From contig CM039010.1 in assembly GCA_017499595.2 (NCBI GenBank), forward strand, positions 1,984,001-2,048,000: a DNA stretch of 64,000 bases, read 5' to 3'. The notes beneath the pieces were generated by a model. The model made no database searches. It worked only from the letters and a program-made list of their open reading frames with translations, and was not told the DNA's origin. The translations under genes were made by a program, and so were the position numbers. The stretch comes from Psilocybe cubensis (taxonomy: Eukaryota). Positions within the stretch are counted from its first letter, which is position 1. Each line of letters begins with the position of its first letter. Positions 21,166-25,225 of this stretch are shown piece after piece.

Positions 21166-22029
21166 TCAAGTTTTATACGGAAGCTCACCTACATCCGCAC
21201 CAAAAGCGATGGCCGCAAGGGCATCAGCGATCCACTCCTCGCCCGCCCGCCATTCTTCTTCAACGCTCCATTGACGAACAAGCTGCCCAGCTTCTGAAAC
21301 CCGGCGATCAACATCCATCTCCTCCCATGCACCCTCATCATCCGCGTCAACAAAGCCCCCTGATAGGCCGTATAGGTGGTATCCGACGAGCTCAGAGAGC
21401 TCCGATTCGAGTGTGGTGCGGGTGCCCCCGAAGCGGGGGTACATGGTCATCATCCGGACAAAAGACGCAAACAAGGCAGGTGGTCGGGGCACTAGAATCT
21501 TGGAGCACCGTGAAGGTTGTATATGGATCGGTGACTGCTCAATCAAATCGGCGGGAGCAAGGGTGGAAAAGGACATGGGGTAGAGTGTAATATGCTGAAC
21601 AGAGGAAATCCGAGTAGCCTTAGTGATTCTATGGAATCGGCCTTTGGCGTAGAAGTCGCCGTACGTTTTCATGAATAATTTGTTAGGGGGTGATAGAGGC
21701 AAGCCTGTGCGGGTAAGCAGATCCGAAGCTCGGTCTAGGTCGTCATCTGGCACGAGGAAGGAGTAATCCTACACAGACAAGATTCAGCTTGAGGTATCAC
21801 AGAAGCATGGTTGTGTGCTCACAAGTACGAGTACCGGGACCCCCAGTCTCCGATACAAAAGGGACCGCCATTCTACGAGTTGGATCCCGAGGCTCTGTAG
21901 GGTGTCAAGAGCGATATCCACGATTTCAGCTGGGTGCTTGTCGAGGATGTTATCCTGTTTGACATCTTTGATAAGTCTGGTGCACGGCACTATATTTTGT
22001 CTGAGTGGGATGGTGGGAGGGCGCAACAT
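21166..22029 (-). CDS. Hypothetical protein with a probable degenerate nucleotidyltransferase fold (2 exons)
   Basis: Exons 22029-21823 and 21768-21166 join by GT-AG to give ...EWRSLLYRRLGVPVLVL|DYSFLVPDDDLDRASDLL...; ORF is intact. Confidence 0.7.
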
Positions 22030-22171
22030 GTTGCTACAGATATTGTGGTGGTGGTCGGGGTTTATGTTGAATTAGCTCACCGCCGTTAGACAATGACCAG
22101 CGTTATTTGGTTTTATTTGGTCCAAGTGGCCAATATAGCCCGAGATAGTGTGGCACAGCCACCATGGACAT

Positions 22172-23086
22172 ATGGCCATTATCTCAATCACCACCTCGAG
22201 CAGAGATCAGTCCACTGCCGCTGAATCTCTTTCTCAGTATCTCGAACAGCTCAATTGTCGCCATGCTTATATAGGAGGATTTGCATGGGCTCTACTTGGA
22301 AGCCGCAGGCCGACTGAGATCAGTATTTTTGATGACTACTTTACATTAAGCGCTCGGGGTTGAATTCTCTACACGATATAGATGTATTGGTCGAAACTGT
22401 GAATCTTGACATCAAGACCCTTCGTGAGAAACTCACAGAGCTCAATAGACAGTTCGCTTCCGCAGGAATAAAGCTGTTTTATGTCAAAGTGAGATCTGTT
22501 GGTCCGTCGCGTGTGACTCATACGGAGTGAGCTGTACAGGAACCAATTGGGGATTTGCGCGACGACGACCTAGTCAGGGCGAGCAAGGACAATGTATTGA
22601 TCGAGACTTTGAAAGCCGGAACCATGGGATTGCCCATCGTTGCAGAGCCAGTGTACGTTGTCGAACACGAATCGGGTCGACGTACGTTTCCATTATGCTT
22701 GCATCGAATATAACTGCAATTTGAGGCCAGGCATCAATATCCTACATCCAGGCATTCTCATTTTGACGAAGATGAAACGATGGTCTCACTATCACGACTC
22801 GGACCGACCAAAAACTGTAATAAAGAACAAATCAGACCAGGCTGACATCGAATTTATGCTCAACTGGCTTGCCGCAAGTGAGATGTTTATCGACTTTGAG
22901 CAGTATCAAGGCAAATCGAGGAGCGACCTGTTAGGAATTGTGCGTGTATACAGGAACAAATTCATTTCAAACACGGACTTGATGGACACGTTGAAAATGG
23001 TGATGAGGCCAGAAGACTGGGATGAACTATGCGACGAAGAGGTGGCCATAGAAACATCGAACAGCACTGTTCACCTAAACGAATAG
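22172..23086 (+). CDS. AbiEii/DUF1814-like nucleotidyltransferase (4 exons)
   Basis: YIGGFAWALLGSRRPTE|DIDVLV (GG..A....R.T.DID motif); C-terminal LILTKMKRW...RPK...KSDQADI helix motif typical of this NTase group. Confidence 0.8.
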
Positions 23087-23514: not shown

Positions 23515-23735
23515 GATCTACACAATAATGCAAGATGAGCAAAGCACAGAAAGAAAATATAAAAACCGAGGGACTGACTGATTATGATATGTGGGAGAGC
23601 TTGGAGTCGTGTGGACCGCATCCTGTCGCAAGAGGGGTCCAAGCTACTATACAGTTCTGACGTAAGCATTTCCACGGTCTCGGCAGTCACCTGCCCAGAC
23701 TCTGCCGCTCCCTCGACTTATTTATCAGTGACACC

Positions 23736-25225
23736 ATGGTCAAGAAGCGCCCAGGGACATCTCGCAAGGTCCCAGCCGCTCTCCACCATGAATTGTCAGA
23801 GTATGCCTCACTGCTACGAGCCCTGCGCGTCAGGGACATGATGGATCTCACAAAGCACATTCTAAAGCCTAACCCTTTTCTAACCGACGCCGAAACGAAC
23901 CCGTCTGGTTCGCCTGCCTGTCTGTATCTTCCCGGTTACCCTTTCTCTAACGCGTCAAGTTAGGTGCTTCTCATGCTGGGCCGAGCGACTTGAACCACCC
24001 TTTCAATGCGCAGACACAACCGAAAAGCGCCAAGGCAAAGGGAAAGCAAAAGGCGGAGTCTTCGCCTGACAAACCTAAGCAGATCCGTCGGGACCACTGG
24101 ACCCGTTGGCCGCTCCTGCTGGAAGACGTTCCACCACCGGAATGGAATCTGTCAGACGAAGTTGCTGTCATAGCTTCCCAGGTCCTGAAAGCTCGTCCAC
24201 CACTCGCCTTTCCCTGCCCAATCTCTAGTTCTGACGTCGACGATCTAATGGCCGAAGAGGACGAGGACGATCGGGTAGTCAAGGTCAGGGAGATGGACGT
24301 GGACTCTGACGACCCAGACCCCCCATTCTACATCCCCTACCTTACCTCGATCATGGCCAAGTTCCTGTCCACCATCTTCCGCATCCTCGCCTCTCACACA
24401 CCTCGTCGGCCAGCCAGCATGCAGAACCGGATCGAACCTCTTGGCTGGCGCTCCGTTATCGACGTCGTGGTCTCCTGTGGCATACCCGAGTTCGCTAACC
24501 CAAAGTATGTATGTATCTCTCCGTTACTCGTAACTAGCTAGTGATCCATGTGTCCGTAGGGTAGTCGAAAATGTCATTAAACGAATAGAACGACTCGTCG
24601 GACCTTCGATTTTACCTATTGAAGGCAGAAAGGCCACAAGTTTCCGTGGTATGTCCTTTATAGTGCCTCTTTCTTCCACTGTCCGCATGCCAATGTCCAC
24701 CATATAGCTGTCGAGAGAATGAAGGGCAAGGACGCACAATCAGAAGCTTTCGACCAACTATTCGCTCGGGAAGCGGCCATGTATTGGGCACCTCTCGAAC
24801 TGCTTCCAGAATCAGAGAGAAATTCTGGTCCTGATCCATTACCTGTCAAGAAAAGGAAAAGCAAAAGAGAGAAACAAGAAGGTAAACCTTCCTCTTCTCT
24901 CTCTGTGGCGGATCGTTGACATGCTTCGTATCAAATTACAGAGGCTGGATATAGGGCTAGGAAACATTGGACTCCCAAGGACAAAGAACAAGGACAATCT
25001 AAATCTAAACCCAAACCCAAACCCAAACCAAAGTCCACTGCCAAAACTTCCAAGAAAAAGGCAACACCGACTCCATCAGTCGACGTCGAATCACCAAGCG
25101 CTTCAGATTCCGATACTGAGGTGCTCAAGACACCCGAACAACCACAGCCAGTTCGACGGAGCACTCGGGCAAAGAACAACGTCAGCTACCGCGAAATACC
25201 ACCCGACGATATACCTCTCATATAA
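23736..25225 (+). CDS. Rrn9-domain-like protein (putative Pol I initiation factor), multi-exon
   Basis: HELSEYASLLRAL...DLTKHIL and RDHWTRWPL motifs; basic K/P-rich C-terminus ending VSYREIPPDDIPLI*. Confidence 0.6.

Follow-up and report, generated by a model that had tools for sequence, protein, structure and literature searches.

A conserved, apparently U2-type AT-AC intron at the catalytic motif of a predicted nucleotidyltransferase gene in Psilocybe cubensis and other mushroom-forming fungi

The first intron of the Psilocybe cubensis gene JR316_0013332 starts with AT and ends with AC, and it was confirmed to be real and to be spliced at these ends. It is very likely a constitutive U2-type intron, an old one held in a two-end trap with rare escapes, and the product is predicted to be an intact enzyme. 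The gene is located in a window of 64,000 nucleotides, the whole stretch of DNA analysed here, and its features are listed in Table 1. Excision of 22319-22374 (56 nt, ATCAGT..CTACAC) gives RPTE-DIDVL, and the corrected product has 252 aa. Excision of the overlapping 22323-22381 (59 nt, GT..AG) gives RPTE-INVL, in which the first Asp is deleted and the second is changed to Asn; if intron 1 is left unspliced, a stop is reached 14 codons into the intron. The NCBI model (P0001) takes the GT-AG form and reads RPTEINVL. An earlier note, made from the sequence of this window, had proposed an AT-AC intron of the U2 type which automated annotation would misread, and these parts have stood. Its proposal of a splicing switch has not, and the deep conservation of the intron and the partner gene had been missed.

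Table 1. Features of the enzyme gene and its neighbour in the window
Feature	Position	Strand	Remarks
Partner gene JR316_0013331, head-to-head	21166..22029	-	269 aa; exon 1 22029-21823, GT-AG intron 21822-21769, exon 2 21768-21166
Intergenic region between both start codons	22030..22171	.	142 bp; probable shared promoter; X9 contigs end at 22072 and 22182, nothing covering between
Exon 1, nucleotidyltransferase gene	22172..22318	+	49 codons with a GGF motif; last residues R-P-T-E, final codon GAG; start as in the NCBI model; RNA contig over 22182-22318
5' splice site GAG/ATCAGT	22316..22324	+	U1-type, +1 being A; 17/17 lineages have AG at -2/-1 and G at +5
AT-AC intron 1, U2-type	22319..22374	+	56 nt; phase 0; between T-E and D-I-D; RNA joint, same ends in 29/46 loci
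Overlapping in-frame GT-AG pseudo-intron	22323..22381	+	59 nt; used in the public model; the RNA contigs gave no joint
Candidate branch site TTGAA	22360..22364	+	11 nt before AC; weak, suggested by pattern scan
Exon 2	22375..22488	+	opens with D-I-D (D50, D52 of the 252-aa product)
Intron 2, GT-AG	22489..22539	+	51 nt; joint in X9 and X11
Exon 3	22540..22681	+	IETL motif, E109
Intron 3, GT-AG	22682..22730	+	49 nt; joint in X9
Exon 4	22731..23086	+	K148, R151, D170, D173; stop codon

Three checks had been proposed for the AT-AC intron, which was said to be needed for the D-I-D motif: junction reads with non-canonical joints allowed, the bases in raw genomic reads, and the intron termini in orthologues. 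The first was answered by the contigs of X9, which, like X11, is not on record as RNA and was taken as RNA; both proved to be spliced, contig 4 of X9 skipping three introns. This contig joins 22318 to 22375 across AT..AC with 0 letters of ambiguity and 114 letters on the shorter side, which ruled out shifted junctions and bore out the claim. It also skips the GT-AG introns 22489-22539 and 22682-22730 on the + strand; it therefore represents spliced sense RNA, and an antisense GT..AT reading was ruled out. No joint for 22323-22381 was found among the four runs aligned, of which X9 is the only RNA set to span the junction, and rare forms are lost from contigs. No retained-intron contig was found in X9, the single RNA set at the site, in the form of contig data. 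X11 starts at 22401 and X12 spans only 22790-22940, so neither informs on intron 1. X11, which represents another allele, has a joint 22682 to 22734 with two other letters between; this is probably intron 3 together with nearby substitutions.

For X13, a set of raw genomic reads from a different strain at a depth of about 35, the rows listed (all but 8 weaker ones) gave no alternative letters at 22319, 22320, 22373 or 22374. The intron interior varies in the same reads: 29 of 35 lack one nucleotide at 22326, and there is a T>A at 22340. The AT-AC ends might be explained as a sequencing error, or as recent inactivating mutations of a GT-AG intron. This has next to no chance of being right, because independent raw reads agree, the RNA is spliced at AT..AC, and 28 of the 45 metagenome loci described below have the same ends.

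The intron termini in homologues were read from metagenome contigs, which were scanned with two exon patterns that excluded the intron ends. The scan gave 45 loci, or 46 with the window copy. When the intron was placed by the protein motif alone, 27 of the 39 loci with both motifs (window copy included) had AT-AC ends; the spliced aligner added L018 and L025, so that 29 of the 46 loci have AT-AC ends at one and the same codon boundary. GT-AG was found at the same boundary in L011 and slid by one codon in L037, and a decayed copy (L044) has GT..AC-like ends. Intron 1 is missing from 12 loci, mostly ascomycete-like ones plus L002, and two are unclear (L013, which looks decayed, and L023, where the site is not covered); L013, L023 and L044 were never counted as AT-AC. 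A changed first Asp or other decay was noted in L044 (1575-1640), L025, L013 and L030, and the GT donor and AC end of L044 might be a single-step intermediate in a dying copy.

After 12 near-duplicates were dropped, the 29 AT-AC loci represent 17 lineages. A+1, T+2, G+5, the exon-end AG and the YAC acceptor are each present in 17/17 lineages. The last exon codon is also NAG in all 17, compared with a background of 0.50 elsewhere in these genes. The likeness of the intron interiors in these lineages is at the level of shuffles (0.45 vs 0.44), and the lengths of 50-64 nt fall in all three frames.

The donors are of the U2 type by sequence, as had been claimed. The match of the AT donors to the U1 consensus is 6.0/7 in the 17 lineages, compared with 3.6 for other introns in these genes, namely the 18 (out of 34) with GT-AG ends and G+5. 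This subset was chosen because the aligner misplaced some of the comparison boundaries, window intron 3 among them. T+6 was found in 16/17 lineages, and the exact ATAAGT donor, given as the type-II AT-AC consensus in passages of PMC5029451, in 8/17. The stronger donor looks like a compensation for A+1, which favours efficient splicing over splicing kept poor on purpose. In 14/17 lineages a loose YTRAH match, a candidate branch site, lies between 6 and 32 nt before the intron end, a count that has no chance control; in the window this match is weak.

AT-AC ends are typical of minor introns, according to part of PMC7072748, which would suit a U12-type intron or relic removed by the minor spliceosome. 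However, the U12 donor ATATCC(TT) and a CCTTRAC-type branch motif were found in 0/17 lineages, the donors fit the type-II consensus, and the intron is missing from the ascomycete-like homologues. The snRNA searches of this genome found U6 three times and left U6atac and U12 unmatched; but U1 was missed too, so these blanks are weak. Passages of PMC10639083 report no convincing minor introns in Basidiomycota. The U12 reading is almost certainly wrong, and we infer that intron 1 uses the U2-type machinery.

The trees (77 rows and 36 rows) pair L011 with L002 as sisters within a clade (99.6/95) that includes AT-AC loci, and further AT-AC loci lie outside it. L037 and an Amanita muscaria model (PT-H-DID, P0035) were grouped (96.1/98) with the AT-AC loci L036 and L041, in which the intron ends TAGCAC. 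In L037 (1647-1700) the intron has apparently slid by one codon: its donor is GT, its AG acceptor lies 3 nt further upstream, and the CAC that formed the earlier acceptor would now encode His. Since L011 and L037 nest among AT-AC loci, AT-AC is most likely ancestral in the intron-bearing clade, in a tree where the deep nodes are poorly supported. L011 also shows that GT-AG is tolerated, so AT-AC is dispensable at the site. L002 is without introns 1 and 3 and keeps intron 2; this might represent intron loss or partly spliced RNA, and L002 was left out of the case for intron loss. The named cases come from Agaricales, Polyporales and Russulales, and the Agaricomycetidae ancestor alone is dated to 192 Ma in the part of PMC8480192 consulted; therefore the intron is probably older than 192 Ma, if it was inherited vertically.

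A mechanism can be proposed for the persistence of this intron. The major spliceosome would recognise it via the strong U1 match around A+1 (AG/ATRAGT-like) and the YAC acceptor, and the A and C ends would jointly replace the usual G and G. According to passages of PMC1557818, G>C at the last base compensates for G>A at +1, with lower efficiency. The intron would already have been present around the base of the Agaricomycete (intron-bearing) clade of the gene family, and it would persist because a change at one end alone spoils splicing at the catalytic D-x-D. If only one end reverted, the two ends at this motif would no longer match; in the window, the first AG downstream of a GT donor lies 7 nt into exon 2, out of frame. 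Escape would take a change of both ends, as in L011, or a one-codon slide, as in L037. Conversions were found in 2 of the 31 intact intron-bearing loci, and the need for two changes or a slide fits this rarity. The pattern suggests a two-step trap.

The earlier note had also claimed that splice choice switches between active and dead enzyme, i.e., a regulated choice between AT-AC splicing and the overlapping GT-AG splicing. Both routes are in frame in the window. However, the GT-AG route depends on two features, an ATA Ile codon and the GT that the U1 site has at +5/+6, and it is possible in only 5/17 lineages. The ATA codon is at the background rate (5/15 vs 0.26, p 0.56; related lineages count as independent in the p-values, which overstates independence). 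The alternative donor is without G+5, and its U1 match is 1-3/7; in the window, the match is 2, compared with 5 for the AT donor. X9 also has no joint for this overlapping GT-AG pair. Among assembly-derived, transcript-like proteins crossing the junction without an insert, 11/12 read D-x-D; whereas 1/12 (P0031) reads INVL. P0031 is an ENA protein of a polypore from a transcript-sized 1251-nt contig, which reads RPTE-INVL and has no other intron insert. It could be a real minor GT-AG isoform or a gene-caller product. The claim is not upheld: a conserved regulated switch is unlikely, and the regulated choice as proposed is very improbable; whereas some GT-AG leak is possible. The overlapping GT-AG pair would be a by-product of the U1-site GT at +5/+6 and the ATA codon, giving at most a minor mis-splicing product.

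The overlapping GT-AG pair is an annotation trap, not a conserved switch. It had been predicted that automated annotation would choose the dead form, and this is what P0001 represents. The 52 named basidiomycete models examined include 19 clean ones, six with the same I/M-N artefact, seven reading into the intron, and 20 without exon 1 or mis-joined, so that the correct D-x-D junction is absent from 33/52. The named NCBI models that continue past T-x with a residue other than D all start with I or M (13/13, an ATN codon), and none starts with V; these 13 models are from Agaricales, Polyporales and Russulales. Among the library representatives, the non-D continuations start with I or M in 17/20, and in those I/M continuations that resume, H or Y precedes D-x-D in 10/10. 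The AT start in the named relatives is deduced from these protein-model artefacts. Intron 1 thus corrupts the public record of the whole enzyme family, and the P. cubensis model P0001 loses its Pfam signal.

The structure model of the Flammula orthologue P0003 (pLDDT 94) best matches Pb27 (5UVD; E 5e-9, TM 0.62) and MenT1 (E 9e-5, TM 0.46), with a sequence identity of 16-18% to Pb27/MenT1. Pb27 is placed in the same DUF1814 superfamily in part of a preprint (10.64898/2026.01.19.700257). The residues T48/D50/D52 align with T39/D41/D43 of MenT1. In 23 rows chosen for a clean junction and aligned to MenT1 and Pb27, the highly conserved positions include: the N-terminal GG and T-x-D-x-D, invariant in 23/23; K148 and R151 in 23/23; and D170 and D173 in 22/23. 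Matches to Pfam PF08843 (AbiEii) were found for 20/23 members at E<=0.1 (best 4e-6), P0003 scoring 16.7 against a cut-off of 22.5; single exons gave no Pfam match. Since D41 is needed for MenT1 activity (passages of PMC10435456), the INVL form would probably be inactive. The spliced product is predicted to be an intact Pb27/MenT1-like nucleotidyltransferase, the enzyme activity being judged from fold and motifs; no described activity for this fungal family was found in the literature.

A paralogue search of the P. cubensis genome gave one match for exon 4, and the P0003 query gave only JR316_0013332 and two weak matches. One of the latter, on the same contig, is a distant, intronless nucleotidyltransferase-like frame (L054, G000:C13:265306-265791) with no intron at the D-I-D motif. 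An X9 contig over 23005-23250 overlaps the 3' end of the enzyme gene at a depth of about 350, compared with 38, and is perhaps a convergent or read-through transcript. The downstream gene at 23688-24541 (+) is syntenic in 4/45 loci (L003, L004, L017 and L033).

The head-to-head partner gene JR316_0013331 and the enzyme gene are both expressed in X9. The partner intron was located with the NCBI model and the sequence rather than by an RNA joint; the X9 contig reaches 22072. The partner model has a predicted MenT1-like fold (top matches MenT1, probability 1.00, E 1.3e-3), and the GG and D-x-D motifs are absent. Profile comparison found no sequence homology between enzyme and partner (probability 0.5%), and their putative kinship is one of modelled fold only. 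A partner homologue was found within 1.5 kb in 31/45 loci, intronless ascomycete-like ones included; several of the 14 misses have short flanks. The arrangement is head-to-head in P. cubensis and sometimes tandem at the intronless ascomycete-like loci, and the two genes carry neighbouring locus tags in P. cubensis, Agrocybe chaxingu and Grifola frondosa. A 522-aa record (P0133) joins both proteins, and it may be a fusion or a merged model. The only intron of the partner (21769-21822, - strand) lies in phase 0 just before a D/N-Y-S motif; it is GT-AG or GC-AG in the 8 loci read and is apparently the counterpart of the AT-AC position. A presumably active enzyme beside a presumably dead relative makes the gene pair a candidate toxin-antidote or enzyme-regulator pair.

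Such a pair could also give the intron a function. Selection might keep the AT-AC ends as a throttle, in which slow splicing limits a harmful MenT-like enzyme, the retained-intron RNA is destroyed, and the canonically spliced partner is in excess as an antidote. The intact T-x-D-x-D, K, R and D-x-x-D columns and the MenT1/Pb27 fold are consistent with this, as are the adjoining partner, whose first intron has GT-AG or GC-AG ends (8/8 read), and the joined record P0133. A retained intron meets a stop within 2-40 codons in 17/17 lineages, and the contig depth in X9 is 61 for the partner and 38 for the enzyme, which is a poor measure. However, the strengthened donors point to selection for efficient splicing, and X9 has no retained-intron contig. 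Moreover, L011, L037, L002 and the ascomycete-like loci have GT-AG or no intron, and several of them keep the partner. The throttle is unlikely. A wider proposal would be a two-gene toxin-antidote module of Dikarya, with an active MenT-like enzyme and a dead neutralising paralogue under a short shared promoter. The AT-AC intron, between the equivalent of MenT1 T39 (Thr) and the catalytic Asp pair, would have been retained in mushroom-forming fungi as a throttle on the splicing of the harmful half, over a span exceeding roughly 190 million years. This is doubtful, and the constitutive intron held in a two-end trap is preferred.

Intron 1 is an added case of a known rare class, the U2-type AT-AC introns. 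It represents a natural case of a long-lived intron of this class in a lineage without minor introns, with a stronger donor compensating, and the escapes seen in relatives make the question of trap or function directly testable. Once its model is corrected, the gene is predicted to encode an intact MenT/Pb27-like enzyme. Together with the degenerate protein conserved next to it, this enzyme is a candidate for a fungal toxin-antidote pair, and of the leads still open the two genes hold the most promise. The intron, the gene and the gene pair are not described in the literature found, a search outside which most subscription papers lie.

The closest animal cases are the U2-type (type II) AT-AC introns of SCN4A, SCN5A and TAF2 (passages of PMC1557818), which also have a major-type donor, are conserved between distant orthologues and belong to a very rare class. 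The same passages describe type II AT-AC introns as conserved in the SCN and TAF2 genes and mention cases hypothesised in fungal xylanase genes. Compared with SCN4A, SCN5A and TAF2, the intron described here is short (50-64 nt), lies at a catalytic motif and occurs in a lineage reported to be without minor introns; both-end conversion and one-codon sliding were found in its relatives, and its U2 dependence is deduced from sequence. In Ganoderma lingzhi, 13 AT-AC introns (0.014%) are reported in part of PMC11590231, one of them (chr6g0094801) confirmed by Sanger sequencing. These are likewise Agaricomycete AT-AC introns that break automated gene models; whereas the passages concerned say nothing on donor type or conservation and do not connect these introns with this family, and the terms 'AbiEii' and 'nucleotidyl' are absent from one supplement. 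The nested AT-AC intron of yeast RPL30 (passages of PMC5029451) is also a case of endogenous AT-AC splicing in a fungus without the minor spliceosome; however, it is a 1-2% side product with an atypical donor, whereas here AT-AC splicing gives the form required by the protein and the donor is of the consensus type.

Regarding the enzyme, Pb27 of Paracoccidioides (5UVD) and MenT1/AbiEii (PMC10435456, in part) are the top sequence and fold matches, and the C-terminal K and D-x-x-D of the fungal family may be the counterparts of K137 and D152 in MenT1. Most members of the fungal family fall below the Pfam AbiEii cut-off and are known from sequence and model, unlike MenT1/AbiEii. The neighbouring gene differs as well: compared with the MenA/AbiEi antitoxins (passages of PMC10435456), the partner found here would be a degenerate protein of the same fold as the enzyme.
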